A stretch of DNA of 53,504 nucleotides from Candidatus Zhuqueibacterota bacterium (lineage in GTDB: Bacteria > Zhuqueibacterota > Zhuqueibacteria > Residuimicrobiales > Krinioviventaceae), in assembly GCA_034506455.1 (NCBI GenBank), contig JAPDPN010000004.1, forward strand, positions 1-53,504, given 5' to 3'. The translations under genes and the position numbers were made by a program. Positions 2,606-37,954 of the stretch are shown here, piece after piece. Under the pieces are notes generated by a model, which saw only the letters and a list, made by a program, of their open reading frames with translations, made no database searches and had not been told where the DNA came from. The stretch's first letter is position 1, and the number at the start of each line of letters is the position of its first letter.

Positions 2606-2619
2606 AAACAGAATCAGCT

Positions 2620-3552: not shown

Positions 3553-3565
3553 CTTTTCGATCCGC

Positions 3566-4545: not shown

Positions 4546-4561
<16 letters not shown>
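3566..4561 (-). CDS. tadB: Tad pilus platform protein TadB (T2SS F-family)
   Basis: A 331-aa membrane protein with a T2SSF domain ([25 protein letters not shown]...), immediately after cpaF. The ORF overlaps the cpaF stop by 16 nt, so the real start may be the Met at 4540 (MTILVVLF...). Confidence 0.8.
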
Positions 4562-6000
<1,439 letters not shown>

Positions 6001-6006
6001 CGCAGC

Positions 6007-7215: not shown

Positions 7216-7244
7216 TGTGCCTGCAACTGTCCTAAAAGATGGTT

Positions 7245-8216: not shown

Positions 8217-8245
8217 AATATCATCCCTCTCCTCTTTGTACCCAA

Positions 8246-9205: not shown

Positions 9206-9218
9206 GATGCCCTCCCGT

Positions 9219-10310: not shown

Positions 10311-10354
10311 GCTGCTTCTGCTCCCGTAGTGATGACCGGCTGATGAAAGTCCTA

Positions 10355-11275
10355 TTAATCCGCACCGAAGGTGATCCGTTCACGCTTATTGGCGTAGAGA
10401 ATCTCCACTGTTTTTCCGGGAATGACCGGTTCAACTTTGGCGGATGTATTCGATGACGACTGCTTTACAGAGGTTGAAGCTGAAGGAGCCGGGGGTTTGG
10501 CTGCCGGTGGAGAAATCGGTTCTGAAGTCTTGAGATTGCCGGCGGAAGACGCAAAATAACCCGCCGGCATCAGCTGACCGAGACGTACACCCGGAGTAGA
10601 AGCTTGATCGTGATCGGCGGAATTCCGCAACGCCAAACGAATTCTCCCTTCCGTTTCCGCCAACGCCAGTTTTTCCGCCTGCTCGGGAGTCACCAGTAGG
10701 GTAGCGTGCTGACCTTCGGCAGGAGCTTCGCCGCCGCTCTGTCCGAATCTTTGATCAATTGCCAATACCAGAACATCCTCGAGGATGATTTTTGTCGCGG
10801 CGGCTTCCTTTTCCATCGATGAGGAAACCGTTACCAGTACATCCACCCGCGAGTTGGGGAAAATGAAGCCGCTGACCCCGGAGACAGGATCGATGGCAAC
10901 CGACATGGCCCGCATGCCGAGAGGAATGAGCCCGGAAACGCCGCCGCTGGAACCGAGCGGCGCCAGTTTACCTTCCAGAATAATTTCTCCCGTAAAAATG
11001 GAGGTTTTAACGACGCGATCGGTCAGAACAGCCGGATCACTAAAGGCACCCATGGGGACCAGTTCAGCCGGAAACTCCGCGACCTTGAGATTTTGCGGAG
11101 TAATTTTCGTTCCCGGAGTCAAATCCATCGTCGCTACCACCGCAGAGGTAAGCACGACCTTTGGTTTTTGTGCCGCCTCCTGCTGTTTTTGAATAAAGCG
11201 CATAACCAGCACGGTGGTAAACAGACTGAGCACCAATGCTAATGGGATGAGGATCTTTTGCTGGAAAAAGCGCAT
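10355..11275 (-). CDS. rcpC: CpaB/RcpC pilus assembly protein
   Basis: It has an N-terminal membrane anchor, a SAF-like segment (VVATMDLTPGTKITPQNLKVAEFP) and an RcpC-type body. A Pro/Ser-rich linker precedes a short C-terminal domain. It sits between tadE and the secretin. Confidence 0.8.
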   Translation of the reverse strand: MRFFQQKILIPLALVLSLFTTVLVMRFIQKQQEAAQKPKVVLTSAVVATMDLTPGTKITPQNLKVAEFPAELVPMGAFSDPAVLTDRVVKTSIFTGEIILEGKLAPLGSSGGVSGLIPLGMRAMSVAIDPVSGVSGFIFPNSRVDVLVTVSSSMEKEAAATKIILEDVLVLAIDQRFGQSGGEAPAEGQHATLLVTPEQAEKLALAETEGRIRLALRNSADHDQASTPGVRLGQLMPAGYFASSAGNLKTSEPISPPAAKPPAPSASTSVKQSSSNTSAKVEPVIPGKTVEILYANKRERITFGAD

Positions 11276-11293
11276 GCACCCGTCTCCGCTGCC

Positions 11294-11701
11294 TTAATTT
11301 TCCCAATGCATGGTGGCGGTTTGCGAAAGTACTCGAGGCCCAAAACCGGGTATTATGCCCTGCGTGAGCGGAACATAGTTCAATCTTACTTGGCAGGATA
11401 CCTCGCCATTGGCATTCGGTCCGCTGATGGTGATGACGGCACCGTTAATGCGCGCAGCGGTGAGTACGTTCTGCGCCGCCGCCGTCGCTTGGGTAACTGA
11501 AGGCGCCGTTATCGCCGCTACCCGTGCTCCCTCGTACGCCGCACTGGTGATGACATTCATGGTCATCCACATACGGCCAAATTCAATGATGGCAACTATA
11601 ATGAGCATAAGCAGCGGCACAACAAGAGCAAATTCGACCACGGATTGGCCTTTTGTGCCTCGAATAAGTTTACGCAATCTGTTCATGGCCTGGTTTCCCA
11701 T
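11294..11701 (-). CDS. tadE: TadE-like pseudopilin
   Basis: Processing-type motif KG/QSVVEFALVVPLLMLIIVAIIEFGRMW in a 135-aa protein. Confidence 0.75.
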   Translation of the reverse strand: MGNQAMNRLRKLIRGTKGQSVVEFALVVPLLMLIIVAIIEFGRMWMTMNVITSAAYEGARVAAITAPSVTQATAAAQNVLTAARINGAVITISGPNANGEVSCQVRLNYVPLTQGIIPGFGPRVLSQTATMHWEN

Positions 11702-12204
11702 AAAATTTTTAGAAAAAAAGCAAAAACGCCTCCCGATATGGCGATTCCATAGGGGAGAGTCTCTGCATTAGGTTTGCACTTGCCTTCAAAAATCGACGTC
11801 TCATCGCTCGTTTTTACATCTATCGATTCCGTTTTCATCGAATTTATCCGGCGTCTTTTAAAGAATAATTGAATACTGGCCATGAGACCGCCTATTAGTA
11901 TAGTATAAAACAGTGCAACTGCAGCAAAGCGAATGCCCAGCCAACATCCGACTGCGGCTCCCAATTTCACGTCACCCGCGCCCATTGCATTGAAAAAATA
12001 GAGCAATAGAAAAAGACCGCCTCCTACCGCCGCTCCCAAAAATGAATTCATTAGACCGTCAATACCGAAATAGATTCCTTGTAGAGCCAAGCCTCCCAAT
12101 AACAACGGCATTGTGACAGAATTCGGTATTCGGCGTTCACAATAATCAAAATAAGCCGCCGTTAATAGCGGAACCGTAATGAGAATCGGCGAAATAAGAA
12201 GCAT
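11683..12204 (-). CDS. tadV: Flp prepilin peptidase (A24 family, TadV/CpaA type)
   Basis: A 173-aa polytopic protein with both catalytic-Asp contexts (AAYFDYCERRIPN and NAMGAGDVKLGAAVG). It has no methyltransferase domain, as expected for the TadV type. Confidence 0.85.
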   Translation of the reverse strand: MLLISPILITVPLLTAAYFDYCERRIPNSVTMPLLLGGLALQGIYFGIDGLMNSFLGAAVGGGLFLLLYFFNAMGAGDVKLGAAVGCWLGIRFAAVALFYTILIGGLMASIQLFFKRRRINSMKTESIDVKTSDETSIFEGKCKPNAETLPYGIAISGGVFAFFLKILWETRP

Positions 12205-12290
12205 AAGTTTCTAAAAAATAACATTCTTTTAAAATAATATAAATTGAATATTTTAATATTGCAATATAAACTTTTTGTCGCTTTTCATGC

Positions 12291-12494
12291 TTAGAACGCA
12301 TTTGCGATGCTGGTAATGAGGTCCGAGTTTGTATTGCCGATCAGCATCAATCCTACTATCGCAATCAAAGCAATTAAAAGCAAAAGAAGCCCATACTCAC
12401 CCAATGTCTGCGCTTTTTCATTTCGCCAATGCCGCCGAAACAACATCAAGGAAACATCCATTCTTTTTTTCAAATTTTTCCACCATGTTTGCAT
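12291..12494 (-). CDS. divergent Flp-family pilin-like protein (flp3)
   Basis: The core QTLGEYGLLLLLIALIAIVGLMLIG aligns with the flp1/flp2 motif QTLSEYALILVLIAVVAIAAVTLLG. The start is moved to the second ATG (12494), which is preceded by AAAGGAGAGG. The ORF track starts it at 12515. Confidence 0.6.
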   Translation of the reverse strand: MQTWWKNLKKRMDVSLMLFRRHWRNEKAQTLGEYGLLLLLIALIAIVGLMLIGNTNSDLITSIANAF

Positions 12495-12757
12495 TGTTCC
12501 GCCTCTCCTTTGCATAATTGTCCTCTTTGTTTGTCGTAATTATTGGACGGCGCATGTCCGAGAATTTAGACAAAGGAGCGTCCAATTTTCAGACCATGTT
12601 TTTCAATTTATAAACCATAAGAATCTAAAATTGTTCATGTCCTGAAAAAGAGAATGAAACCAATCTATCGACAAACCGATAGACCTAAAAACGGCGAAGC
12701 GCGAAGGTTGTTATGGGGATTGAAAAATGAGGGATGAGGAGGTAAAAAGCTGAAAAG

Positions 12758-12880
12758 CGGAAGAATTTACGCTCATACTAATAAAGCCGCAAACATACCT
12801 TAACCTCCACACGCATTCATTTGCATCACCTTACGGCTTCGCTCGTTTGCTTTCCTGCCTTTAATGAGCAAATTCTTCCG
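12758..12880 (-). other. long stem-loop (candidate attenuator or RNA-stability element) between flp1 and flp3
   Basis: A 17-bp helix with one 2-nt bulge: 12758..12776 (CGGAAGAATTTacGCTCAT) pairs with 12864..12880 (ATGAGCAAATTCTTCCG). There is an inner AAGCCG (12784..12789) / CGGCTT (12834..12839) helix. U-rich sequence follows on both strands. Confidence 0.35.
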
Positions 12881-12954
12881 TTTTTGCATGTCAATGGGCT
12901 CCTGCCCATCCGCGCCCGCACGGAGGCGGACACGGATGGGGTAGGAGGGAACTC

Positions 12955-13107
12955 TTACAGGGCGGCAGCGATGTCGTTCAGCACCTGGCTGATCTGGTTG
13001 CCGAGCAGCGTAACCGCGGCAATGGCAACAACGGCGATCAGTACCAGAATCAACGCGTACTCGGACAGCGTCTGCCCTTCCTCACGAACAAACAGGCTCT
13101 TCAACAT
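12955..13107 (-). CDS. flp: Flp pilin (flp1), 50 aa
   Basis: Absent from the ORF track because it is under 60 aa. The reverse-strand translation is MLKSLFVREEG/QTLSEYALILVLIAVVAIAAVTLLGNQISQVLNDIAAAL*, with the canonical G/xxxxEY Flp motif. The RBS AAGGAAGGAG lies upstream. Confidence 0.9.
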   Translation of the reverse strand: MLKSLFVREEGQTLSEYALILVLIAVVAIAAVTLLGNQISQVLNDIAAAL

Positions 13108-13248
13108 GGTTCATGCTCCTTCCTTTGGGTTTCAGATTAAAGATCTCGCCCTTTTTCAGCGCTTAGAGGGCAGCGGCAATGTCGTTCAGCACCTGGCTGA
13201 TCTGGTTGCCGAGCAGCGTAACCGCGGCAATGGCAACAACGGCGATCA
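12971..13248. repeat. 70-nt perfect direct repeat (12971..13040 = 13179..13248) inside the tandem flp genes
   Basis: The string atgtcgttcagcacctggctgatctggttgccgagcagcgtaaccgcggcaatggcaacaacggcgatca occurs twice, offset by 208 bp. Confidence 0.95.
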
Positions 13249-13321
13249 ATACCAGAATCAGGGCGTACTCGGACAACGTCTGGCCCTCTTCCTTCACAAA
13301 CAAGTTTCTGAGCTGCAACAT
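13163..13321 (-). CDS. flp: Flp pilin (flp2), 52 aa
   Basis: Absent from the ORF track. The translation is MLQLRNLFVKEEG/QTLSEYALILVLIAVVAIAAVTLLGNQISQVLNDIAAAL*. The RBS is AAGGAGAG. The predicted mature part is identical to flp1. Confidence 0.9.
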   Translation of the reverse strand: MLQLRNLFVKEEGQTLSEYALILVLIAVVAIAAVTLLGNQISQVLNDIAAAL

Positions 13322-13431
13322 GGTCGTCTCTCCTTCTTTTTTAGTTTAAACTTTTCGGCTCCAAATTGACACTCTTAAAAATCAACCGAAGCCTCCTGAA
13401 CCCTTGTTGATTGCTCTCGCTATTATTCTTT

Positions 13432-13954: not shown

Positions 13955-15322
13955 ATGATTGCAATTAATAATATACAATATGGTTTTAAATTTTCTAATT
14001 CGCACCATAAGAACAGCTTGCGACTGCAGACCATGCACAATAACGATTCGAATTTAACCGGTTGCTATTTCCCAAATACCCATAGCCTGTCTGTGCTACT
14101 GCAGAGGATTACTTTCAGGGCAATGGACTTTTTGCAGGCTGAGGACGTTATTCTCTTCCTCAAAGATGGTGAGACAAAAAAGTATACCATTGCCTACGCT
14201 GCCACTCGAGCGGGCGAGACCTTTGCGCCCAAAGCGGAGCTTTTCGACTTTGCCGCCGCTAAAGAGTGCGTACGTTATCGTAAATGGGTGCAAACAGATC
14301 AGCGAACTCCTGAGGGCGTTCGCCCGTGCTTGTGGATTCCGTTATGCTGCGAAAAGGAATGCGTCGGCTTATTGTATCTAATTGATTGTCTGCCCATGCC
14401 TTTTGAGCGCAGCTTGGCAGAGCAAATGAACGCATTTGCCGAATTGTCTGCCAAAGCAATATACAATCATCAAGGGCCGATTGAAAAAGCGAAGGAACAT
14501 CAGCAGGCTGAAACTCGACGCGCTCAGCAGATGGAATCGGCAGGGGAGATGAAAGGTGTCGCTGCAGCTAAAATCGGTCACGAAATCAATAATTTCGTCG
14601 CTGCTGTTAACGCCAACCTTGAGCTTGCATTGGATTTGCTCAACAATGACGGAGAAACCGGCGAAATAAAAGAGCGGATTCTTAAAGCCCAGCAGCTTTT
14701 GATGCAGATTGCACCATTAACCGGCGGCTTGATGTGCAGCTGCATGATGCAGCCGGCTTTTGAAGTAAAAAGTGTTAATCAAGTCGTCAAGGGCTTTATC
14801 GAGTCAATCAAGCCTGTCTATCAGCGCACCGGCGTCAAGTTTCTCTGTCGCCTGCAGCCTAATCTGCCTCTGCTGCGGCTGGATCCACGCCTGCTGAGTC
14901 AGGTTTTGTTCAATCTCTGCAAAAACGCCGTTGAGGCACGGAAGGACGCGCAAATTGTCATCTCAACTCGGTTCGATGCCTGCGAAAGATGCATTCTTTT
15001 AACCATACAGGACAACGGCCCCGGGTTTTCTCCCGAAAAGCTGCAGCGTTTGTTTGCAGAACCATTTACGGATAAGGCAAACGGGCACGGCCTGGGATTG
15101 GCAATCTGCCGCGATATCATAGAAAAACACGGCGGCAGCATTCAGGCCGCCAACGCGGAATGTGGCGGCGCCTGCTTTACCATTCGCCTGCCTCTGCCGC
15201 ACCATGAAGATTATAAGGGATTGGAATTTGAACGCATCGAGCAACCTTGCAGACCCTACGACGATGCGAAGCATCAAAATCCGCGCTCATTGGTGACGCT
15301 TTCCCACGAAAAAGTCAATTAG
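13955..15322 (+). CDS. soluble sensor histidine kinase (GAF-like N-domain, HisKA, HATPase_c)
   Basis: H-box GHEINNFVAAV, N-box LFNLCKNAVEA, G1 IQDNGPGF and G2 GHGLGLAICRDIIEKHGG. I see no TM segments. The start is uncertain because the first ~26 codons are AT-rich; an alternative ATG lies at 14033. Confidence 0.85.
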   Translation: MIAINNIQYGFKFSNSHHKNSLRLQTMHNNDSNLTGCYFPNTHSLSVLLQRITFRAMDFLQAEDVILFLKDGETKKYTIAYAATRAGETFAPKAELFDFAAAKECVRYRKWVQTDQRTPEGVRPCLWIPLCCEKECVGLLYLIDCLPMPFERSLAEQMNAFAELSAKAIYNHQGPIEKAKEHQQAETRRAQQMESAGEMKGVAAAKIGHEINNFVAAVNANLELALDLLNNDGETGEIKERILKAQQLLMQIAPLTGGLMCSCMMQPAFEVKSVNQVVKGFIESIKPVYQRTGVKFLCRLQPNLPLLRLDPRLLSQVLFNLCKNAVEARKDAQIVISTRFDACERCILLTIQDNGPGFSPEKLQRLFAEPFTDKANGHGLGLAICRDIIEKHGGSIQAANAECGGACFTIRLPLPHHEDYKGLEFERIEQPCRPYDDAKHQNPRSLVTLSHEKVN

Positions 15323-15328
15323 CTCCTC

Positions 15329-16729
15329 TTATCTTCCGCAGGTCAAATCGATCATTCGCAAAATTGCCCGGCGGCAAACCGGGCAAAAGTCCGTTAAGGA
15401 TTTGCTGAACATACGGCAGTTCAACGCCGGTCTGTAAATTCCGGTCGAGGCATACCCTGCGCCTTCGAAAGAGCCGACAATTCCAGTGAGATTAGGATCA
15501 CTGAGTATTGCGTCAAGCTGCTTTTGCAGTTCCCCGCGCTTTTTCGGGTCTTTTTCTTTCGCCGAGGCAAGAGCCAAAGAATCGAATGCCGTCTTGTTCC
15601 AGGGCGTGGGGACCAAAACGCCCTGGGTAAGCATTTTTCTCCATTTGCAGCCGCCGTCCGCGTTCAGCGTCGAAATGTTCGGTTCCCAAGGTTCGACATC
15701 AAGAGGATAAAGGTCATTGTAGGCGACTACCGAATTATAGTATTCATCGGCCAGGCCGGCAAAAGAATGACCGAATTCATGGACAAACACATACTCGGCC
15801 CACCATTCCGGCTCCTTTGTTTCTCTACCTGCATAGCACACAGCGAATTGATTGAAAATTCCGCCGCCGCCATATTGAGATGAGTTGATGAGCACATAAA
15901 CGGCGTCATAAGGCGCGGCTGCGGCGATGTCGCGCAGGGCCTGATTTTCCGGACAAAGAACATAGCGCTGGACGTTAAACGTGTTGTAGCGGCAGCCGAG
16001 AGCTGTCTCTTTCCAAATCCCTGCGCGCGGATCGTCGATGCCCGAATTTTGGGAAGGCGCCTCGATGAGACGAATATTGAAATCGGTGCGATGTTCCTTG
16101 AACGGTTCAACCGAAAACAGGACATCGACAAATCGGCGTGCGTCGCGGCGCAGCTTGCCCATTTCTTTGCGGTGATAGCCGTCGCCGAGAATCACCAGAT
16201 CCACTTTGCTTTTAGGGTCGCCGTTGATGACCAGATTGCGGACAAGGCCGCGGGTACGGCAGGGCTCGCGCCGGATATCAGTCGAGGCCGGATCGACGGC
16301 CAAGGACCAAAGAGGCGCAAACTCGTTGCGGCGATTTCGCTTCAAAAATTCGAGCCGCACCGGTTTGCGGGGAAAGGGGATTCGCACGGATTCGTGCATG
16401 GCTCGCCGTAGTCCGTTTAAGGCTTCTTCCGTAGTCTGCCATTCGCCGAATACCGAGCAAAAACCGTGTGCATAAAGAAGCTGACCGCTTTCCTGATCAT
16501 ACACCTGCACGCAATACTGACCGAGATCGAGCGTTTCGGTCAATCTCGCGGTTCGGCCCGGCCAGGCTCCCTCTTCGATGAGCGCCGCCAGGCCGATCTC
16601 TTCTACTCGGCCGTCGCCGCAGTGAACATAATCGACGCGCAGTGTTTTGTCTTCAAACCAGTGATAAAAACCGTTTTCTTTGGCGATGATAATGCCTGAA
16701 AGAGTAAAAAGAAACACAACAATTTTCAT
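15329..16729 (-). CDS. secreted zinc metallopeptidase, M64 (IgA-peptidase-like) family
   Basis: HExxH in the context YVFVHEFGHSFAGLADEY, plus an M64_N-like N-domain. The start is moved to MKIVVFLFTLSGIIIA (a signal peptide) at 16729, preceded by GAGGAAAG. The longer track ORF would overlap the upstream gene. Confidence 0.8.
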   Translation of the reverse strand: MKIVVFLFTLSGIIIAKENGFYHWFEDKTLRVDYVHCGDGRVEEIGLAALIEEGAWPGRTARLTETLDLGQYCVQVYDQESGQLLYAHGFCSVFGEWQTTEEALNGLRRAMHESVRIPFPRKPVRLEFLKRNRRNEFAPLWSLAVDPASTDIRREPCRTRGLVRNLVINGDPKSKVDLVILGDGYHRKEMGKLRRDARRFVDVLFSVEPFKEHRTDFNIRLIEAPSQNSGIDDPRAGIWKETALGCRYNTFNVQRYVLCPENQALRDIAAAAPYDAVYVLINSSQYGGGGIFNQFAVCYAGRETKEPEWWAEYVFVHEFGHSFAGLADEYYNSVVAYNDLYPLDVEPWEPNISTLNADGGCKWRKMLTQGVLVPTPWNKTAFDSLALASAKEKDPKKRGELQKQLDAILSDPNLTGIVGSFEGAGYASTGIYRPALNCRMFSKSLTDFCPVCRRAILRMIDLTCGR

Positions 16730-16737
16730 GACTTTCC

Positions 16738-18993
16738 TCAATAAAGGGTTCGTGCAAGGATTTCCTGCTGAATGTCCGGCGCCAAGTCGATAAAACGGGC
16801 GCTGTATCCGCCGACGCGGACAATGAGGTTGGCATATTTTTCGGGATGAACGAGCGCCTCTTCGAGTTCGTTGCGGCTCACGACGTTGAGCATCGCCTGC
16901 GCGCCGCCCATCTCCCAATAGACCTCGAGCAGCTGGTCCACCTCGCGGCGATTGCGCGTGAACAGCTCCCGCGACAACTTGATATTCTGCACCGCACCGG
17001 CGTGCAGACTGACGGGCGGCTTGACGATCGAGTTGAGAAAAGCGGTGATGCCGTCGGTATCGGCGCCGCTCGAGGGCGCGTTACCGTTGTTCATGGGCGT
17101 AAAGGCCAGGCGACCGTCCGGGGAAGCTGCCGTATATCTTCCCATGACTGTATTGGCATTGTTGTTAATGACGACCACCAGGTAGGAATCCAATCCCACC
17201 CTCTGAGCCTGATTGCGGGTGACTGTAAAAACATGCCGGTCGACTGAGACGAGCATTTCATCGGCTTCATCCAGGTCATTGCCGTATTTGGGCGCTTGGA
17301 CGAGAAGCCGCCTTTCCCGGCCAAAACCGACGAAATTTGCGTCGAGCATTTGTCGCAGCTGCGCAAGGGAGAAGCGTTTTTCTTGGAAAACCAGTTTCCG
17401 GATTGCCGTCAGGCTGTCGGCCGTGTTGCTGTTGCCGTAGGTTTCCAATGTGCCCCCTAAATATCGGAGGCCGCCGTCGAAAACCGCCTTGCCGCGTTCC
17501 AGACAGTCGTCCATAAGCAGCGTAAGATAGAGAAAAGGCGCCGTTTGTCCGGCAATGCGATATTCGAGCGCTTCCTGCTCAGCCAAAACCTCAACGTGCC
17601 GTTCCACTTGGCGGCGATAAGCATCCCAAAGCGATTCGAAAGAGTCGATGATCGGCAGCTCATCGGCAGGTATGCCCATGGGAATGCGCCGTGTGGGGTC
17701 GATTCCGTGATTCAGCGTGACCAGAAGAGCCTGCAAAAGATTGATGACGCCGCTCGGCGTGCCGAAGCTTTTATGCTCGAGCACGTACTCGCCGCAGCCG
17801 AACGGCACATAGTTCGTCGCCTCGTCTTCCGAAACATCAAATGCCGCTGCAACGGCCGGAATGTTCACGTCGTCGTTATAGAGAATCGGATAAGGATTGT
17901 TACTGGAAATACAATCGAGTGCTCTTTGATAAAGCAGGGGATTTTGCCCTTTATAAAAGCGCAGCGACAATTGCGGCATGACCAATCGGGTGCGACGGGT
18001 CGCTTCGATGCACAAAAGCGCGAGGCGATCGGCGACTGCCTCATTGGCGCGGCCCTTACCTCCGATAATGACGCGCGAGTCGAACATCCAAACGCCGTTT
18101 TCGCGCTCGGCCATCAGGCGCCAGAGCGAGCTCAGCAGCGCCACGACGCTTTCCTCCGAAAGTCCTGCGGCTTTATCAGCAGCGTACAATTCAACAAACG
18201 TGCGATCAAAGCGTCCATAGTTGGCATTGCCGGAGAGCAGAGCATAAAGCCAACACAGCTGGAGTCCTTGATGCAGTGTTTCCGGCGGTTTTTCTGAAAT
18301 GTGGAGGAGGCAGCGGACGAGCTCGGCGCGCACGTCGGCGGGCAAATCGGACTGCTGCGCTTTTTCAGCATACCAAAGACAGACCTCGGCGAGCAGGTCG
18401 ATGCTGCCGACGAGTGCGCGATAGAGCGCAGCCCCTGCAGGTTTGCGCTGCATATGCTCCTCCAGCTCGCGACGCAGGCCGCCGATGCCGAGGCGGATCA
18501 ATTTGGCATAATCTAACGTCGACCCAGCCATACGGTAAAGGGGAAAGGCAATGCCCGATTCGAAGTTCCAATTGTCGCTGGGCAGGAGTTTGGCCAGTTC
18601 GCCCGAGTAGGCGCGCCGCGTTTTGGCAGCCGTATGGTTTTCCCGCCAAAAATCGAGAAGAACCGTCAGCCGACTGCGCAGTTCATCGGAAAGCTCCGGT
18701 TCGCGCAGCAAAGCGACAAACTCCTCTTCTTTCAGGTAATAGCCGAAGCCGCTGCCCATCTGCGGCGAAAAGCCCACCGGCGCATGCAGCACACGGCCGA
18801 CGAACCGATCTTCAGGCTGAGGCGGCAGCAAAACAGCGGGGTATTGAGCGCAAAGACAGGCGAGCTCCCGCTCGATTGGAGCGTCATCACCGAACGCAAG
18901 ATAGATTCGGGTAAACTCGAGAATTTGCCGAGCTGTTTTTTCTGCACCGTTTTTCGGCGTAAAGGTAATGTCGACGGCGGATTCAAGGGTCAT
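16738..18993 (-). CDS. glycyl radical enzyme, PFL2/dehydratase-lyase-like, substrate unknown
   Basis: C-terminal glycyl-radical motif LIVRVGGYSARFIDL and active-site loop VPFGCGEYVLE (Cys-x-Glu type). The start is set at MTLESAV (18993), the first ATG after the activase stop. No ATG, GTG or TTG occurs in frame between 18994 and 19054. Confidence 0.85.
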   Translation of the reverse strand: MTLESAVDITFTPKNGAEKTARQILEFTRIYLAFGDDAPIERELACLCAQYPAVLLPPQPEDRFVGRVLHAPVGFSPQMGSGFGYYLKEEEFVALLREPELSDELRSRLTVLLDFWRENHTAAKTRRAYSGELAKLLPSDNWNFESGIAFPLYRMAGSTLDYAKLIRLGIGGLRRELEEHMQRKPAGAALYRALVGSIDLLAEVCLWYAEKAQQSDLPADVRAELVRCLLHISEKPPETLHQGLQLCWLYALLSGNANYGRFDRTFVELYAADKAAGLSEESVVALLSSLWRLMAERENGVWMFDSRVIIGGKGRANEAVADRLALLCIEATRRTRLVMPQLSLRFYKGQNPLLYQRALDCISSNNPYPILYNDDVNIPAVAAAFDVSEDEATNYVPFGCGEYVLEHKSFGTPSGVINLLQALLVTLNHGIDPTRRIPMGIPADELPIIDSFESLWDAYRRQVERHVEVLAEQEALEYRIAGQTAPFLYLTLLMDDCLERGKAVFDGGLRYLGGTLETYGNSNTADSLTAIRKLVFQEKRFSLAQLRQMLDANFVGFGRERRLLVQAPKYGNDLDEADEMLVSVDRHVFTVTRNQAQRVGLDSYLVVVINNNANTVMGRYTAASPDGRLAFTPMNNGNAPSSGADTDGITAFLNSIVKPPVSLHAGAVQNIKLSRELFTRNRREVDQLLEVYWEMGGAQAMLNVVSRNELEEALVHPEKYANLIVRVGGYSARFIDLAPDIQQEILARTLY

Positions 18994-19054
18994 GCGATGC
19001 CTATTTAAAACAAGATTTTTGGAAAAATCCGGGATCTTTTTGTAATAATTCTGA

Positions 19055-19957
19055 TCATCCAAGGCCGACGTTCCGACAGCCCAACGCGGCCAGGCGGGCG
19101 ATCCAGCGCGCTGCCGTTTCTTCATCGACGCTTGTCTGTGCAAGCAGCCAGGGTTTGCCGATCTCCTTTGCCTTTGATCTGCCATAGTCATGATAGGGCA
19201 GGACATCGACGGCTTCAATGCATGCGTACTCCCTACACAGCTCGGCAATTCGGCAAAAATGCTCTAGGTTATCGTTGATGCCGGGAATAATCGGACAACG
19301 AAGTCGTACCCTCGCTCCTATAGTCGCTAAACGCTCGAGACCCTCCAAAACCTGAAAAAGGGAAGTTCCGACATGATTTCGGTGTTGCATCTCTTCCGAT
19401 GCTTTGTAATCTAATAAGAAAAGGTCCACAGCATCGGCAGTTTGTTCAAGAGGATCAAGCAGTACTCCGGCCGTTTCAACGGCTGTGCTTATGCCGAGCC
19501 GATGAGCTGAACGAAGCAGCGCTTCGGCAAACTCGGCCTGCATCAGCGGCTCGCCGCCGGAAAGCGTCATGCCGCCGCCGGATTTTTCGTAATAAAGAAA
19601 GTCACGCTTGACAACGTCCATGACTTGTTCAACCGAAAGCTCTTTTCCGATTCGCCGCAATGCTCCGTTTGGGCAAGCCTCTATGCAGGCAAAGCAGCCT
19701 TTACAGCGGTCGACGTCCCAAAGATGCTTTCCCCGAACCGTAATATGAGCCCCATGCGGACATTCGCCAACGCAGGCCAGACAGTGCGAGCACTTGTGCT
19801 CGGCAAATGCTAATTGAGGCGAGGGTGACTGGGATTCGGGGTTGCTGCACCATGTGCAATGCAATGGACAACCTTTGAGAAAAACGGTTGTCCGGATTCC
19901 CGGGCCGTCATGGAGCGAAAATCTTTGGATGTCGAAAACGATGCCTCTTGTGCTCAT
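19055..19957 (-). CDS. glycyl-radical enzyme activating enzyme (radical SAM with two auxiliary 4Fe-4S motifs)
   Basis: Radical-SAM motif CPLHCTWCSNPE, ferredoxin-type motifs CSHCLACVGECP and CKGCFACIEACP, and the GGE motif LSGGEPL. Confidence 0.9.
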   Translation of the reverse strand: MSTRGIVFDIQRFSLHDGPGIRTTVFLKGCPLHCTWCSNPESQSPSPQLAFAEHKCSHCLACVGECPHGAHITVRGKHLWDVDRCKGCFACIEACPNGALRRIGKELSVEQVMDVVKRDFLYYEKSGGGMTLSGGEPLMQAEFAEALLRSAHRLGISTAVETAGVLLDPLEQTADAVDLFLLDYKASEEMQHRNHVGTSLFQVLEGLERLATIGARVRLRCPIIPGINDNLEHFCRIAELCREYACIEAVDVLPYHDYGRSKAKEIGKPWLLAQTSVDEETAARWIARLAALGCRNVGLG

Positions 19958-20101
19958 GAATCAATTTATCGATTTCAATCGTATTTTTCAAACGTGATGA
20001 AGGATTGCCGATTGTGCAAGTTGTTTGCTTTTAATGACGAACATTCATTTCGGCTCTTCCGTTTTTAAGGGTGAATTTTACAATTAAAGGGAGTTTAAAT
20101 T

Positions 20102-22570
20102 ATGAAAACGGCAAAAGTAATCTATAAATTAGCACTGGCGTTAACTCTATTGGGACCCGTCATTACAGAAGCCTCCCCCGCACCGGAAATGCCGGCTCCG
20201 CCAGCAGCGGCAAAAGGGGCGGTAATCAAGGGTGTAATCATGGATTCCTTGTTGGCCGTTCCGATCGAGTATGCCAACGTCGTGCTAATGACCGCAAACG
20301 GCGGACAGCAGGTAGACGGCACGGTCAGTCGCAAAGACGGAACATTTTTGTTGAACAACATCAAGCCGGGCGCCTATGAGCTGCACGTCAAATTCATAGG
20401 CTACTATGAAAAAGTGCTGCCCAACATCCGCGTCGCGCCGAACAGCTCGGAAATCGATCTCGGCAAAATCGAGTTGATGCAGGCCGTGATCATGCTGCAG
20501 GGCGTGGAGGCGACGGCGGAAAAGGCGCCCATTGAATATCAGATCGACAAAAAGGTCATCAACGTCAGCAAGCAGTACACGGCCGCATCGGGGACGGCGA
20601 TTGACGTCCTCGAAAACGTGCCGTCCGTTACGGTTGATCTCGAAGGTAACGTTGCATTGCGGGGCAGCTCGAACTTTCGGCTTCTGATCGACGGCCGGCC
20701 GACGATCATGGAGGCTGCCGACGCGCTGCGGCAGATTCCCGCCAGCAGCATCGAGAACATTGAAATCATCACCAACCCGTCGGCCAAATTTGATCCGGAC
20801 GGCACGGCCGGAATCATCAACTTGGTGCTCAAAAAGAATGCGCTGCAGGGCATTAACGGCATGATCAGCCTTAACGGCGGCATCAACGACCGCTACGGCA
20901 GCGATATTCTGCTCAACCGCCGGACCGGCGGCGTGAACGTCTATCTCGGCGTCAATTATATGCGGCGCTATAATCCGGGCACCATGATCCAGCGCAATCA
21001 GACATTTGCGGCGGACACCGTCTCGTTCGTCAATGCCGACGGCAGCGGAGACCGCAATTTCGGAGGCTACGGGCTGCGCGCCGGTGTGGATTGGGACATC
21101 ACCAAGCAGGACCTGTTTACCCTCGGCATCCGCCTCGGTAACCGCGGCATGAACAACAATCAGACATCGAACTATGCTTCTTGGACAACTCCGGGCCTCG
21201 ATGTGTTTCGATATACAAGCTCAGGAATCGAAAAGCGAGGCGGCATGAGCGGACAGGTCAATTTAAGCTATAAGCACAAATTCGACAATCAAGGACATGA
21301 GCTCACCCTGGAAAGCAATTATGAAAACGAGACGAGCGATGAAGAATCGAGGGATGAGCTGCTGAATGCCCTCGGCGAACTGGAAAGCGGCCGGCGAGCC
21401 ACCGAAAAAGGGCCGCAGAACGATCTGCGTCTTAAGGCAGATTATGTGCGGCCTTTGGGCGGTGCCGCGCGCCTGGAAGCCGGTCTTCAGAGCCGTCTGG
21501 CTCGATCGGAAGAACGTAACGACCTCTACGAATACAGGCCGGCGCTGCGGACGTACATTTATTCGCCGCAATTCAGCTACGCCATGGATTTTACCCACGA
21601 TATTCATGCCGCATATCTGATGTACGCAAACAAGCTGGGGAAACTCGGTTATCAGGCCGGACTGCGCGGTGAATATACCTATCGCATTCTGGCATCCAAG
21701 GACCAGGATGAGCGTTACACCATTAATCGCATGGATTACTTTCCGACTCTGCACTTTTCCTATGAACTGCCGGCCGGTCAACAGGTGATGGCCAGCTATA
21801 CGCGAAGAATCGAACGTCCTCGAGACTTTTTCCTTGAGCCTTTCCTGGTGTGGATGGATGCCTATAACGTGCGAAGGGGCAATCCGTCGCTATTGCCGGA
21901 GTACATCAATTCGTATGAATTCAGCTATCAAAAGAACGTAGGGCGCAACCTTTTCTCGGCTGACGTCTATTATCGTACTACGGAAAACCGTATTGAGCGC
22001 ATCCAGAGCGTTTATGCGGAAAACGTCATGTTGACCACTATGGCCAACATCGGCACCGATGAGATGCTCGGCGGAGAACTCATGCTCAATTTTGATTTGA
22101 AGCGCATGTGGAACGTCAATTTGATGGCAAACATTTTCGACTATACCATCAAGGGCGTCATGCGGGGCGAAAACTTTGAGCGCAGCAGTTTCAACTGGAA
22201 TGTGCGTATGAACAACACGCTGCGATTTTCGCAAACCACCCGCATGCAGGTCAACTTGATGTACAACAGTCCCTCGGTCTCGGCTCAGGGCCGGCGGGAA
22301 GGCTTTTTCATCGCTTCAGCAGCCGTGAGAAAGAGCTTTCTCAATGACAAGTTGGAGGTCATTCTGCAGGTCAACGATTTGTTGCGCACCGGCAAATTCG
22401 AATTCTATGCGCAGGGACCCGATTTTTATCGTTACAATAGCTTCAAGCGCGAAGCACCTATGGTCAGCCTTACGTTGAACTATATTTTGAACAACTTTAA
22501 ACAACAGCGTCAGCAGCGTAATGGAGGAGAGGAGGAAAACGGCTACTCCGGATTCGATATGGTAGAATAA
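20102..22570 (+). CDS. TonB-dependent-receptor-like outer-membrane beta-barrel (CarboxypepD_reg, plug, barrel)
   Basis: It has a signal peptide, a CarboxypepD_reg segment (IKGVIMDS...DGTFLLNNIKPGAYELHVKFIGYYE) and a plug-like segment (AIDVLENVPSVTVDLEGNVALRGSSNFRLLIDGRP), followed by a long alternating beta-strand region. Confidence 0.8.
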   Translation: MKTAKVIYKLALALTLLGPVITEASPAPEMPAPPAAAKGAVIKGVIMDSLLAVPIEYANVVLMTANGGQQVDGTVSRKDGTFLLNNIKPGAYELHVKFIGYYEKVLPNIRVAPNSSEIDLGKIELMQAVIMLQGVEATAEKAPIEYQIDKKVINVSKQYTAASGTAIDVLENVPSVTVDLEGNVALRGSSNFRLLIDGRPTIMEAADALRQIPASSIENIEIITNPSAKFDPDGTAGIINLVLKKNALQGINGMISLNGGINDRYGSDILLNRRTGGVNVYLGVNYMRRYNPGTMIQRNQTFAADTVSFVNADGSGDRNFGGYGLRAGVDWDITKQDLFTLGIRLGNRGMNNNQTSNYASWTTPGLDVFRYTSSGIEKRGGMSGQVNLSYKHKFDNQGHELTLESNYENETSDEESRDELLNALGELESGRRATEKGPQNDLRLKADYVRPLGGAARLEAGLQSRLARSEERNDLYEYRPALRTYIYSPQFSYAMDFTHDIHAAYLMYANKLGKLGYQAGLRGEYTYRILASKDQDERYTINRMDYFPTLHFSYELPAGQQVMASYTRRIERPRDFFLEPFLVWMDAYNVRRGNPSLLPEYINSYEFSYQKNVGRNLFSADVYYRTTENRIERIQSVYAENVMLTTMANIGTDEMLGGELMLNFDLKRMWNVNLMANIFDYTIKGVMRGENFERSSFNWNVRMNNTLRFSQTTRMQVNLMYNSPSVSAQGRREGFFIASAAVRKSFLNDKLEVILQVNDLLRTGKFEFYAQGPDFYRYNSFKREAPMVSLTLNYILNNFKQQRQQRNGGEEENGYSGFDMVE

Positions 22571-22582
22571 ACTCCCAAGACC

Positions 22583-22617
22583 AAAAACGGCGCGTCTTGA
22601 ACGCGCCGTTTTTTTTT
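22583..22617. terminator. bidirectional rho-independent terminator
   Basis: AAAAA, then stem CGGCGCGT (22588..22595), loop CTTGA, stem ACGCGCCG (22601..22608), then T9. It lies between convergent genes. Confidence 0.8.
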
Positions 22618-23734
22618 AAAAGCAGGATCTTTCTTTGGCGGTTTGATAGAGCTTGGGGATTGCGCCGACAAAAGTGGTGTCAAAGAAAACCTGCGGCCGC
22701 AGATTGATCAACTTTTGTATCTGAAAAGCAGTGACATAGGGGTCATCCTTCAAATCGGGAAGTTTTTCCATTTTCAAGCGACAGACTTCGGCTTCAATTA
22801 ATTTCATGACATTGGTATAGTCTGACTGCAGCAAAGGTTTTAGGTTTTTATCTTCGGCCAATTTGGCAGGCTCGAAATAGCGCATACCGACTTCCTGGAC
22901 AAAGCCGTTATAGAGACTGAGGCGGTCCTGCTGAGCTCCCAGAATGACCTTTTCAGGCCCGATGCGTGCGGCCAAAGCCGGCGTTTCCGGGCAGAGCATC
23001 ACCACAAATTCGTTGTAAGGATAGGTTGTTTCGAACGCTTTTTGCCAATAATCGAATATGCGCAAAGCTTCAAACTCTTTTCGATAATCGTTGGTGTCGA
23101 GAGACGAGATCTTTTTCTTGTACTCCTCGCGATATCGCGGCCATAATTCGCGCATGTAGGCATCCCAGATGTCGATGATGCGGATCACGACCTCCTCGCG
23201 TCCGGCATAGGCGGATTTGAGGAGACGGAGAGAAGGCTCGCAATACCATCGCTGCCAATTTTTCGTCTCCGGATAATTGCGGGTAAACACATCCAGCGAG
23301 CCGGTGCCGACAAACTCTTGGATCACTTTGAACTGTCGATGCAGCTCTTCAGGGTTTTCCGGATCGAGATAAGCGGGCATATGGTAGAGGAACTTTTGCA
23401 GCGGCTGGTTGAAGAGCGCTTTGGTCGATCCGCATTCCATCAAAAGAGGCGATAATTGTCTGTACCATGTTTCCATTTTCGGATCGAGGGTGCTGTTCCA
23501 CAAACCAAGCCTGCGCAGGCCATGCCAATAGAGCGCGCTGTAATAACTGAATTGTATTTTGAGAGGAGAAGATTTGTAGCCGGCGACTGAGCGAAGTGTA
23601 AGCGGTTGATTCGGCTTTTGCGCCTCGTGCTTTTTGCCGCAGGAAACCCAAAGCAGCACCAAAAAAGTCAGTCCCAACACTCCGGCGATGCCTGCAAATT
23701 CAACTCTGCTCTTTTTGTCCATGTTCTTTGTCAT
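22616..23734 (-). CDS. hypothetical lipoprotein
   Basis: I recognise no domain. The start is moved to MTKNMDKKSRVEFAGIAGVLGLTFLVLLWVSC (a lipobox-like VSC) at 23734. An alternative start is 23722. The track start at 23848 would overlap the upstream gene. Confidence 0.5.
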   Translation of the reverse strand: MTKNMDKKSRVEFAGIAGVLGLTFLVLLWVSCGKKHEAQKPNQPLTLRSVAGYKSSPLKIQFSYYSALYWHGLRRLGLWNSTLDPKMETWYRQLSPLLMECGSTKALFNQPLQKFLYHMPAYLDPENPEELHRQFKVIQEFVGTGSLDVFTRNYPETKNWQRWYCEPSLRLLKSAYAGREEVVIRIIDIWDAYMRELWPRYREEYKKKISSLDTNDYRKEFEALRIFDYWQKAFETTYPYNEFVVMLCPETPALAARIGPEKVILGAQQDRLSLYNGFVQEVGMRYFEPAKLAEDKNLKPLLQSDYTNVMKLIEAEVCRLKMEKLPDLKDDPYVTAFQIQKLINLRPQVFFDTTFVGAIPKLYQTAKERSCF

Positions 23735-23771
23735 ACGACATTGTCGGGTTTTGGTCGTTACACGAGACGGC

Positions 23772-24512
23772 TCATCGTCCTTCCTGTTTAAGCAGATTGG
23801 TTTTTTTCTTGATCGTACGAAGAACAAGAAAGAGGATGCCGCCGACAATCAGAAGCGTACGCCAGTACTTACCGAGAGTCAGCCTGCGATTGATGTAGGA
23901 ATCGATCATAAGGTTGACGAGGCTAAAGCTGACGACCAAGGAGTAAGCACTTTGGTATTCGTTACGAATGGCTTTCCGCAGAGAAAACGAGAGTTCCGGC
24001 TTGCGCCATTGACTGAAAGTCGGGAAGAAAGAGCGCGTATGGGATGCCCATTCGGTAAATTGTCGGCCGAACTTGCCCCGCAGAAATTCTTCTTCTGCGA
24101 ACATAATCCGCTCATAATAAAGCCAAAAGATCAAAACGATCGTTAGGCTCAACCACCAGGTGCGGAAATATAGAAATAACCCGAACCACATGAGAAAATT
24201 ACCGAGATAGAGCGGATGCCGCACGATCGAGTAAAAGCCTGTGGTGTTGAGAGATTCGGCCACCTGCTTTCCGCGGTTTGTACCGGACGTGCCTGCCGGC
24301 GTAAAGCCGATGGTAAAAAAGCGGATAAGAAGCCCTAAAAACGCGATGGAAGCGCAAACCACCTCCCAAGTTAAATTCTCTTTTTGCGTTTTGCCGGGAT
24401 AATTAAAGAGTGGAAGGCCTGCTAATATCAAAAAGAACAGAAGGGGCGGTAAATAACCGCGCAGTTTGAACAAACGGTTGCCTGTACGGATGAACTCTTC
24501 GTAGAGCGCCAT
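23772..24512 (-). CDS. ICMT/PEMT-like polytopic membrane methyltransferase
   Basis: Signature FYSIVRHPLYLGNFLMWFGLFLYF plus several hydrophobic helices. It is a paralog of the C-terminal half of 1631..2605. Confidence 0.7.
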   Translation of the reverse strand: MALYEEFIRTGNRLFKLRGYLPPLLFFLILAGLPLFNYPGKTQKENLTWEVVCASIAFLGLLIRFFTIGFTPAGTSGTNRGKQVAESLNTTGFYSIVRHPLYLGNFLMWFGLFLYFRTWWLSLTIVLIFWLYYERIMFAEEEFLRGKFGRQFTEWASHTRSFFPTFSQWRKPELSFSLRKAIRNEYQSAYSLVVSFSLVNLMIDSYINRRLTLGKYWRTLLIVGGILFLVLRTIKKKTNLLKQEGR

Positions 24513-24682: not shown

Positions 24683-27600
24683 ATGAAAGTTCGTTTGAGT
24701 TTTCTTTTCCTGCTCTTGCCGGTGGTTGTTTTTGCGCGCACTGAGCAGAATTCCCTTGCCTGGCAAAAGGCGAGGTTTCAGTCCGAAGTGATTCGGCGAA
24801 TGCAGTTCGGCCAAGAGAATTCGACGACTATAGTATCGAATGCAAAGATTTTAGGCTTTATTCACAACCAAGGCTTCGGAAGCATCAGCGGACGGTTATA
24901 CAACGTAGAGCCTGAAGCTCTGGCAAATGCCTGGGTGGAGGCCTTTTCGGCGGATTTTTCCTCCGATCAGGAAGGTTTTGCCAAGGGACTTTCTTTGGTG
25001 GATAAGTCTGGGAGTTATCGCATCACTGATCTGCCGGAAGGCAACTATTATGTGCTGGCTTATGCAGAAGGATATGAGCCGCTTTTTTATCGAGATGCGG
25101 CGGATATCATTCAAGCCCTGGCGGTAGCGGTTTCGGCTAACCGCGATACCGAGGGTATTGATTTTAACATGCAGCGGGTGCAGGAAGGAAAATCGACCAT
25201 CACCGGACGCGTGACGGATGCAGCATCCGGTAAGAGCATTGCCGGCGCACTAGTCAGCGCTATCGGTGTGGTGAGCGGAGAGAGCGGATGGGCTGAAACC
25301 GATGAGAACGGCAACTATACTTTGACGAAACTTAAAGCAGGCACCTATTATCTCGTCGCGTGGGCTCAAGGATACCTGCAGCAATACTACAACAACAAAA
25401 GCTCCTTTATGGAGGCCGATCAGATTGCCGTAGGCGATTCGGTGGTGCTCAATAATTTCAATTTTCGTCTGCAGCGTGGCGGCTCGATTTCCGGTCGGGT
25501 AACCTATGAAAGCGGCCGTCCTGTCGTTGAAGCATATTTAACTGCCTCACCCGTAGGTACTTTTGACCCCGAGACCGAACCGACTTTCGGCAAGACCATT
25601 ACAGATGAAAACGGCAATTACATCATTGAAGGCCTCCGCAGCGGCGACTATATCGTCGAACTTCAGGCGCGCACTAAATGGCAGTGGTTTACTCTTTGGT
25701 ATAACCAAAAAACGAACTCTGATGAGGCAGACAAGGTGCGGGTTGTGGTCGGTCAAAATACCAACGACATTAATTTCACCGTGCCGATTCAAGAAGCCTC
25801 CGGCAGTATCAGCGGTATTGTAAAAGATACGGAGGGGAATCCGATTTTCGGCGCTTATATCGGCGTGCAATCCGCCGATCCGAATCAATGGATTTATGCT
25901 TATGCCTCGACTGATGAAGAGGGGAGATATCTCGTTGAAGAGCTGCCGGACGGCCGCTATTACGTTTCCGTCGGAGTGCAGAACGGATGGCAATATATCT
26001 ACCGCTGGTGGCCGGGAGTGGAGCGATTCGAGGAAGCTCAGCCCATTTTTGTGAGCAAAACGGCACCGGCAACTGCGGATTTTACGCTGCCGCTGATCGT
26101 CGGCCGATCCTCGATCGCGGGCCGCGTTACGGATACAAACGGGCGCCCGCTGGCCGGCGCAAGTCTTTCCATTATGCCGGCTTCCGGCGACAATCCCGAT
26201 GGAGTAATCAATGCGGTTTGGGCCTGGGCAATGACGGATTCCGAGGGCTATTATCGCGTCAAACAATTGCCTGCCGGCCGCTATCAGATTTACTGCAGCT
26301 ATTGGGAAGAGCAAAAATTCGGGGAACAATGGTGGAACCATAAGGACAGCCAGGAGAAAGCAGATGTTCTGGTATTGGGAGCCGAAGAGGAACGGAACGG
26401 AATCGACTTTACTTTGACCGTAAAACCTGTCTTTGGCGCAATTGTCGGTGCCGTTTTTGATTCACTCACCGGCATGCCGGTGCAAAGAGCGCTTGTGCAA
26501 ATTACCGCTGCCCCAAGGGACGGGTTAGGGAGCAACAATATTGCGGCTGCATATCGCTTTTATTGGCGACGCATGGCGGCCATTACCGATGAAAACGGTC
26601 GTTTTGCCGTCGATTGGCTCTATGAGGGCGACTATTATGTTTCGGTCTATGCAAACGGAGCTTTTGAGTATTTTGAAAATGCACCGGTCATCGAGTTGGC
26701 CAAGCGGGTTAAAGTGAACGGCGGTGAAAAAAGCGAAATTGCCGTCAAAATTGCGCCCAGACGCGATGGAAAAGGCATGATCAGAGGGCGTGTTCTGATG
26801 GAGGGAACGCAGACCCCGTTCGAGATTGCCGTTGTAACCGCTCAACCGGCCATTCGCGCCCAGGTATGGCCGCAGTCGGAAATGTTCTATACCGCGGTTG
26901 CCGATACCAACGGGTACTTTGTATTGACAGGACTTCCGGAAAATACAGAGTTTCTAATCTACGCTTTTTCGATGTGGACGGTAGGGGAGTACTATAACAA
27001 TGCCTACGACCCCGAAGAGGCGACGTTGGTGCGTTCCGGCTATCCGAATGCAACTGTGCTCAAGGACATCGAATTGCCCGTATATCGGTGGTTGTGGAAT
27101 GGTCCCGAAGACGGCGGCAAAGGCGTGATGACCGGACAGGTGGTCGGCCGTGTGACGGACGGCGACGGCGAACCGATTGCAGGGGCGCGGATTATCGCAT
27201 TTAACGAAAGCCGCCAGCCTGTTGCGGATGCTCTCACCGACAGCCAAGGCAACTATGAATTAAGCGGCCTGCCGTTCGGCAATTACATTTTGCGGGCGGG
27301 ACGTTTTGGATATAAATCGGTCTTTAATAACAACGCAGAATCTTTCGAAGACGCCAAACCGATCACTCTGGGAGCCAATCGAATACAAGTGGATTTCGTT
27401 CTCACTCTCAAAACGGAGGTTGTCGAAGAGAAAGAATCTGCTCCCACCAAGTTCGAGCTGTTGGGCAATTATCCCAATCCCTTCAACCCGGAGACCGTTA
27501 TCGTTTTCCGGGTGCCGAGCCGGAGCCGCGTATCGTTGAACGTTTTCAACCTTTCCGGCAAAAAGGTGGCCGCGCTGGTCGACGAACCGCTTGAGGCCGG

Positions 27601-34321: not shown

Positions 34322-34360
34322 GATGTTACTCCAGGCTTGAATCTGTAATTCGCTGACAAG

Positions 34361-37918: not shown

Positions 37919-37954
37919 GTCGTTCTCCCTTTAGACTGACGATTCGTGTTGTGG

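Follow-up and report, generated by a model that had tools for sequence, protein, structure and literature searches.

Glycyl radical enzymes (GREs) carry out difficult anaerobic chemistry, and newly assigned families of them have revealed routes for choline, hydroxyproline, sulfonates and anhydro-sugars. Here we describe a GRE whose gene lies directly upstream of a gene for an M64 metallopeptidase in a 53,504-nucleotide stretch of DNA (the window, below) from an uncultured sediment-type bacterium, placed near candidate division KSB1 by the relatives of the GRE neighbourhood. A CXE motif is common to all GRE eliminases and isomerases (PMC13450708). A 2026 review of the superfamily lists no enzyme of the kind found in the window, and the only sugar-acting GREs that it names are YbiW and PflD (PMC13450708). 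The closest characterised relative of the peptidase is BF3526 of B. fragilis, described in 2025. It is exported, leaves intact IgA and IgG uncut and shortens proteins that have already been digested from their N-termini, cutting mostly after proline (VP/CP/VPSTPP, strokes marking the cuts), while the IgA protease of Thomasclavelia ramosa recognises the Fab region (PMC12402451). The sequence similarity network cluster of BF3526, CL-I, takes in Calditrichota, Ignavibacteriota and Acidobacteriota, and its homologues were stated not to be associated with carbohydrate-metabolism genes or polysaccharide utilisation loci (PMC12402451).

We observed that four genes of the window, encoding a GRE activase, the GRE, the M64 peptidase and a histidine kinase, form a genuine gene block, which is conserved yet separable. 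The first three lie on the minus strand and look like one operon, to judge by their spacing (Table 1). A first-pass annotation, made from the letters alone, had proposed this gene order, an 8-nt gap between GRE and M64, and an outer-membrane protein (OMP) gene diverging from the activase across 144 bp. The open reading frames (ORFs) and both gaps were found as it had described them, and the Shine-Dalgarno-like box GAGGAAAG overlaps the GRE stop codon. Read in the sequence, the GRE stop TGA occupies 16740..16738 and the M64 ATG lies at 16729. The longest ORFs begin at TTG codons at 16918 and at 19248; these starts are artefacts, and homologues support the ATG starts of the first-pass annotation. 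The kinase gene is convergent with M64, their stop codons lying 6 nt apart, and is a conserved neighbour that the first-pass annotation had overlooked.

A promoter and terminator scan found no terminator-like site at the GRE-M64 junction. In the 144-bp region it gave two weak sigma-70-like matches, although such a scan is uninformative for an organism of the Fibrobacteres-Chlorobi-Bacteroidetes (FCB) type. No Rfam match was obtained in the activase leader or in the 144-bp region, and thus no riboswitch or leader RNA that would name a ligand; over the whole window, the only class of Rfam match was a tRNA.

Further, we fetched 173 loci and searched them with the window proteins, using tblastn for M64 over 168 loci. 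Taxon labels given here are those of the metagenome-assembled genome (MAG) records. An M64 gene was identified directly 3' of the GRE gene in seven verified distinct loci, the window included. In the other six, identity to the window GRE was 89% in L001/L002 (KSB1 MAG), 66% in L171 and in L009, which equals L089 (Calditrichaeota MAG), 61% in L010 (Cytophagia MAG), 60% in L172 and 59% in L004-L006. Three further GRE/M64 pairs (P0006/P0123, P0011/P0144 and P0019/P0140) were not verified but deduced from contigs of equal length in the GRE and M64 protein searches. The adjacency, which the first-pass annotation had named as one thing to check, is therefore conserved elsewhere. The M64-linked GREs, at 53-89% identity to the window GRE, form one clade with 86/100 bootstrap support in a neighbour-joining tree. 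The gene order was activase-GRE-M64 in all linked loci, with the activase upstream of the GRE wherever upstream DNA was present, while the other flanking genes differed between loci. In six of the seven loci (window, L001, L171, L009, L010 and L004) the spacer between GRE and M64 was only 8, 8, 8, 7, 9 or 11 nt long and had a purine-rich box; the exception was L172, with 262 nt. The best GRE match, at 89% in the KSB1 MAG, came with an entire neighbourhood syntenic with the window: Tad pilus locus, kinase, M64, GRE, activase, OMP, a PEMT-like gene and a seven-repeat CarboxypepD_reg protein.

The M64 tree showed the same three subgroups as the GRE tree, and the pairwise distances of the two proteins were correlated over the seven verified pairs (r = 0.86). 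Basal to the linked GRE clade stand L090, L169 (with a LacI regulator) and L170, all without M64. Among approximately 160 distant family members (45-52% identity) no M64 was found near the GRE, so that the pairing occurs only in the close clade. The first-pass annotation knew of no described GRE-M64 pairing; our literature search likewise found no paper that combines glycyl radical enzymes with M64.

We compared the GRE with the characterised families. It matched PF02901 with 297 bits and PF01228 with 71 bits, which places it within the superfamily of glycyl radical enzymes. The glycyl motif is R726-V-G-G729-Y730, with the predicted radical residue Gly729 (codon 16809..16807), and V727, G728 and G729 show no variation among the family members. 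The cysteine loop G399-C400-G401-E402, with the predicted thiyl residue Cys400 (codon 17796..17794), is invariant in 176 sequences and carries the CXE motif of the 1,2-eliminase/isomerase class in the form GCGE. The enzyme shares its two-domain architecture with the eliminases and isomerases of known structure or function (glycerol dehydratase 1R8W, propanediol dehydratase 5I2A, CutC, HypD 6VXC, IslA, YbiW/PflD), and like them it has RVxG[FWY], here RVGGY, and an adjoining cognate activase with an additional ferredoxin-like domain. The activase scored 321 bits against TIGR02494 (cutoff 174) and reached no equivalog cutoff. It has the motif C30-x3-C34-x2-C37 (CX3CX2C) and a ferredoxin-like extra domain inserted at residues 53-101. 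Of 168 related loci, 134 have an activase beside the GRE gene.

Unlike those eliminases and isomerases, the window GRE came near no equivalog cutoff. It scored 212 bits against HypD (NF043068, cutoff 1100), 212 against HpsG (cutoff 1000) and 208 against CutC (cutoff 1050), and 295 bits against TIGR01774, the broad PFL2 and glycerol dehydratase (GDH) subfamily (cutoff 678). Assignment as HypD, CutC, GDH, HpsG, IslA or indoleacetate decarboxylase was rejected, all equivalog scores being far under their cutoffs. A profile built from 55 sequences of the GRE family was about equidistant from the eliminases and isomerases named above, at 345-374 bits: GDH 374, CutC 374, propanediol dehydratase 362, YbiW 346 and HypD (6VXC) 345; the further solved structures 9RCO and HpzG gave 342 and 335 bits. 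HypD, HpyG, HpzG and HplG were no nearer to the family than GDH, CutC or YbiW, and YbiW/PflD were no closer than other solved GREs. Thus the comparison with characterised clades that the first-pass annotation had proposed was run with equivalog models and the family profile, and no clade fits; its suggested precedent, a HypD-type dehydratase, is not borne out. By these scores the family is a separate branch within the eliminase/isomerase group and lies in no characterised clade. A literature search found no description of it.

Pocket residues of the GRE were mapped by sequence and profile alignment to GDH only, not on a structure. The general-acid residue His164 of GDH aligns to Gly157, which is invariant in the family, and the His281/Ser282 loop corresponds to a six-residue deletion. 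The GRE should therefore not handle glycerol or propanediol in the way GDH does, and its naming as a B12-independent glycerol/propanediol dehydratase was rejected. Further replacements in the alignment are Tyr339 by Asp305, Asn341 by Arg307, Asp447 by Pro413 and Tyr640 by Ile609(-Asn-Asn). R154, R307, GCGEY, P413, I609-N-N and N614 are invariant across the 176 family sequences, which makes a peptide-specific substrate unlikely. A GxW insert at 300-302, Asn612 and Asn635 are special to the M64-linked clade, yet they are also present in the basal members without M64; there is therefore no sign that the substrate changed upon linkage. Action on hydroxyproline in the HypD sense is not supported by these sequence comparisons.

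We analysed the wider family by a motif scan and by its gene neighbourhoods. The scan located both GRE-family motifs in 295 GTDB species genomes as well as in 358 loci from metagenomes, from phyla which include Bacteroidota, Ignavibacteriota, Acidobacteriota, Verrucomicrobiota, Bacillota and others. Neighbouring ORFs of 167 GRE loci were clustered with a simple custom ORF caller and counted within five genes of the GRE. An AraC regulator was found at 62 of these 167 loci, a PhyH dioxygenase at 31, a GFO/IDH/MocA oxidoreductase at 27, GH92 at 20, an SMP-30 lactonase at 19, GH5 at 18, a sugar-binding protein at 15, an aldo-keto reductase at 13, and GH130 and a nucleoside-hydrolase-like protein at 12 each. 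Operon mates on the same strand included GH3, GH10, GH30, sulfatase, SSF/APC permeases, aminotransferase, URO-D and DUF4432, so that the context holds glycoside hydrolases and sugar transporters together with AraC/LacI regulators. No peptidase was found as an operon mate in the wider family outside the M64-linked clade. The commonest layout was a GRE-activase bicistron next to an AraC gene. This speaks for a small metabolite, either derived from a sugar or polar in some other way, rather than for peptides. Together with the Arg/Asn-rich invariant motifs mapped to the pocket, these carbohydrate neighbours suggest that the substrate is most likely a small, polar, possibly anionic, sugar-derived metabolite. 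The peptide-derived substrate of the first-pass annotation is not in agreement with this, as the wider family stands among carbohydrate genes without a peptidase and has the same pocket motifs as the M64-linked clade.

Three further observations concern the wider family. L096 and similar loci have an operon of kinase, activase, APC amino-acid-type permease, GRE and membrane polyferredoxin; an APC-type permease lies between activase and GRE in approximately six wider-family loci and could hint at the substrate of the family. In L007, L008 and 29 other loci the oxygen-sensitive GRE has among its neighbours an oxygen-dependent PhyH-type iron/2-oxoglutarate (Fe/2OG) dioxygenase, which may be its aerobic counterpart on the same compound. 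A family member (48% identity) and its activase were also found in L076, a contig assigned to a Haloarculaceae archaeon MAG, either by horizontal transfer or by a binning error.

The peptidase matched PF16217 (M64_N) with 122 bits and PF09471 (M64) with 280 bits, both over their cutoffs. Its catalytic motif H317-EFGH-SFAGLA-D328 (HEFGHSFAGLAD; HEXXHXXXGXXD) is intact, which assigns it to family M64, and a C-terminal cysteine cluster C-x10-C-x2-C is present. The N-terminus, MKIVVFLFTLSGIIIA followed by KE, resembles a Sec signal, and the same hydrophobic N-terminus was observed in 114 of 121 homologues. The protein thus looks like an exported one, and the signal peptide that the first-pass annotation had noted was recognised again. 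It scored 284 bits against BF3526 (4DF9/9QDI) and 282 bits against BACOVA_00663 (3P1V). Like these proteins, it has an M64_N beta-sandwich and a catalytic domain, a Cys-rich second metal site and a signal peptide. Unlike BF3526, it has an insertion of approximately 40 residues (378-417) and no lipoprotein cysteine, and it shares an operon with a GRE. Cleavage at proline, also claimed before, is what BF3526 does; it was shown for that enzyme only, and peptide trimming by the window protein would follow by analogy. The match to the T. ramosa IgA protease was 33 bits over approximately 90 residues around the active site. That enzyme belongs to the same catalytic motif family but has a different, multidomain architecture, and the window protein consists of 466 amino acids in two domains. 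An IgA-specific M64 protease of the ThomasA type was therefore rejected, and the window protein should not be named an IgA protease.

Relatives of the kinase (34-81% identity over 308-454 amino acids) were identified directly after M64 in L001, L171, L172, L009, L010 and L173; in L004 the relative is one gene further off. The stop codons of M64 and kinase overlap in L171 and L173. The convergent, end-to-end pairing is kept across all examined lineages (window, L171, L172, L173, L009 and L010), even where the GRE is missing, and there is no response regulator close by. L173 has a synteny like that of the window, namely a seven-repeat protein, PEMT, a 385-aa gene, OMP (73% identity), M64 (57%), kinase and Flp/Tad genes. 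It lacks activase and GRE, so the OMP gene diverges directly from M64 there and the order is OMP<->M64<-kinase. The same assembly (GCA_900174595.1) is the source of L003, whose GRE (67%) is the nearest one outside the lineage of the window itself. In L003 the activase-GRE pair has Fur/rubrerythrin genes on one side and a GH16 gene on the other, and M64 is missing; as this GRE is nested inside the linked clade, the arrangement looks like a secondary separation. L171 is the reverse of L173, with the four-gene block present and the OMP absent. From the states of these three loci it follows that activase-GRE and M64-kinase are separable units.

The OMP gene did not belong to the block. Its relatives were found only in L001/L002 (94% identity) and L173; it was absent from L171, L172 and L004-L006, and the upstream DNA of L009 and L010 was too short to judge. 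In the KSB1 lineage the OMP goes together with M64 and not with the GRE, and it could not be retained as a step of the same locus, as the first-pass annotation had it. The protein matched PF14905 with 339 bits, PF00593 with 62, Plug (PF07715) with 31 and also PF13620, while TIGR01782 gave 38 bits against a cutoff of 310. It did not match the SusC/RagA models, its NCBIfam hits were only far under cutoffs, and no SusD partner was found at the locus. The domain order CarboxypepD_reg, Plug and barrel is the same as in Bacteroidota TonB-dependent receptor-like proteins. Unlike the Bacteroidota SusC/RagA type, the window OMP has no SusD, and its link to the operon is lineage-specific. A Sus-like utilisation locus was rejected, as there is no SusC/SusD pair and the OMP is not conserved with the operon.

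We estimate a probability of about one half that the three-gene operon and the convergent kinase are a four-gene block which is inherited as a unit in one small clade of anaerobes of the FCB type (labelled KSB1, Calditrichaeota and Cytophagia in the MAG records) and is kept by selection for co-expression. Co-expression is the most likely meaning of the link between GRE and M64, and direct hand-over of an M64 product to the GRE is less likely. On this reading the activase would install a radical on Gly729, from where it would pass on to Cys400. Cys400 would abstract a hydrogen atom from a small hydroxylated substrate, and Glu402 of the CXE motif would deprotonate the hydroxyl and drive cleavage of an adjacent C-O, C-N or C-S bond; this last step is modelled on all known GRE eliminases and isomerases. 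The exported M64 would trim N-terminal residues of already-cut peptides, mainly after proline, as BF3526 does. GRE and M64 may then be co-expressed, perhaps through the adjacent kinase, in anoxic scavenging of mixed protein and glycan detritus.

Several observations weigh against this reading. Co-transcription is judged from spacing, and all trees are neighbour-joining only. The block can split, as L173 keeps OMP<->M64<-kinase and L003 keeps activase-GRE, and no response regulator or transporter was found to belong to it. The evidence for a carbohydrate context was drawn from relatives at 45-52% identity. As many of these loci share a phylogenetic relationship, the neighbour counts are not independent. 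The pocket residues of the GRE were placed by alignment and not by structure. Since the block is separable, co-transcription is not obligatory and adjacency might persist by descent alone.

Adjacency without shared function is a serious rival, though on balance we hold it to be unlikely. The activase-GRE pair would have landed once upstream of M64-kinase, captured or shared its transcription, and been inherited or moved as a block ever since. Both halves do occur alone, M64 and kinase in L173, activase and GRE in L003, L090, L169 and L170. There are 45 M64 clusters compared with 15 GRE sequences (18 with the basal members) in the corresponding clades, and the junction arose once, not repeatedly. 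However, the order of unrelated genes seldom persists over large divergence, and here the adjacency and the very short spacer persist down to 53-59% GRE identity while the other flanks all differ, with a single loss inside the clade.

The activase-GRE-M64-kinase block might also encode something more ambitious, a novel anaerobic route in which an exported proline-directed peptidase and a GRE of a new type act on the same modified biopolymer, e.g. a proline-rich protein that is glycosylated or hydroxylated. The wider GRE family, with its 295 or more species, would then perform radical chemistry on a substrate class new for GREs. We consider this quite improbable. Also improbable is the single pathway of the first-pass annotation, in which the exported M64 releases a product of the proline or hydroxyproline type from extracellular protein, which is taken up through the OMP and then undergoes HypD-like radical chemistry on the GRE. 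In its favour, the operon is tight and conserved, the closest characterised M64 cuts after proline near peptide N-termini, several known GREs act on hydroxyproline isomers, and an APC-type amino-acid permease lies between activase and GRE in the wider-family loci mentioned above. Against it stand the HypD scores and the equal distance of the hydroxyproline-related enzymes given above, an OMP that most linked loci lack and that in L173 is paired with M64 only, pocket-mapped motifs that are the same in approximately 160 family members with a carbohydrate context and no peptidase, and basal clade members that carry LacI or no partner. A regulatory arrangement has very little chance of being right. 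In it the exported M64 would produce a peptide signal or take one away, an intracellular ligand would be sensed by the GAF kinase, and the two together would control the GRE. In its favour, no part of the block is conserved as tightly as the convergent M64-kinase pair, which persists without the GRE and has stop codons that overlap or nearly touch. Against it, the kinase has no hydrophobic or membrane segment and hence no direct sensing of the periplasm, a response regulator is absent from the block, BF3526-type enzymes act as general peptide trimmers, and convergent genes are unable to share a transcript.

Table 1. Positions of the operon, its neighbours and other features in the window.
Feature	Position	Strand	Remarks
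Activase (radical SAM GRE activase)	19957..19055	-	300 aa; operon gene 1
GRE (uncharacterised CXE-type family)	18993..16738	-	751 aa; PF02901 + PF01228
GRE-M64 spacer	16737..16730	-	8 nt, ggaaagtc, between GRE stop and M64 ATG
Purine-rich Shine-Dalgarno-like box GAGGAAAG	16739..16732	-	overlaps GRE stop codon
M64 zinc metallopeptidase, putatively exported, BF3526/BACOVA_00663 type	16729..15329	-	466 aa; final operon gene
Soluble GAF-HATPase histidine kinase	13955..15322	+	PF01590 + PF02518; N-terminal start uncertain
Divergent intergenic region activase/OMP	19958..20101	.	144 bp
OMP, CarboxypepD_reg/Plug/beta-barrel	20102..22570	+	822 aa
Tad/Flp pilus locus	1631..13369		complete
ORF between PEMT-like gene and OMP or activase	22616..23848	-	410 aa
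Seven-repeat CarboxypepD_reg protein	24683..27724	+	1013 aa
Type ISP restriction-enzyme C-terminal specificity domain	29484..32582	-	
ORF antisense to the former	29568..32318	+	916 aa
Row of PorV-like gene, ORF and second OMP	33269..40678	-	

We also noted other features of the window. The Tad/Flp pilus locus has the same order in L001 and L173 and comprises two T2SSF genes, a T2SSE ATPase, a TadZ-like receiver with AAA_31, Tad, secretin, RcpC, TadE and a prepilin peptidase; ORFs of the size of Flp pilins lie in a low-GC stretch (0.39) at approximately 12-14 kb. The 410-aa ORF had no Pfam or NCBIfam match, and versions of it (368-385 aa) are kept in the same position in L001, L171 and L173. 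In these three loci the protein with seven CarboxypepD_reg repeats, which in the window ends in a type IX secretion system (T9SS) C-terminal sorting domain, adjoins the PEMT-like gene. The ORF antisense to the restriction-enzyme domain is probably an artefact of the high GC (0.58) and GC skew of that region. The row on the minus strand consists of the PorV-like gene, a 1185-aa ORF without a family match and a second CarboxypepD_reg/Plug/TonB-barrel OMP, and it may be a T9SS-related surface module.

In summary, these results describe a GRE family with a wide distribution among anaerobic degraders of polymers, the motif scan having found it in 295 species genomes. The 2026 review contains no characterised member of it. 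Assays of the family are feasible, as cultured carriers exist, namely Rosettibacter primus, Ruminiclostridium cellobioparum, Clostridium lacusfryxellense and Pelagihabitans pacificus; Melioribacter roseus gave a match only as a MAG. That such a GRE is paired with an exported peptidase, and that the pairing is conserved, is unusual; it gives a further clue to the substrate, if an ambiguous one. The pairing also contradicts the published view that M64 genes of the BF3526 type are without metabolic partner genes. Even if the link is only one of co-regulation, the finding would still mark an uncharacterised GRE family that is worth assaying.

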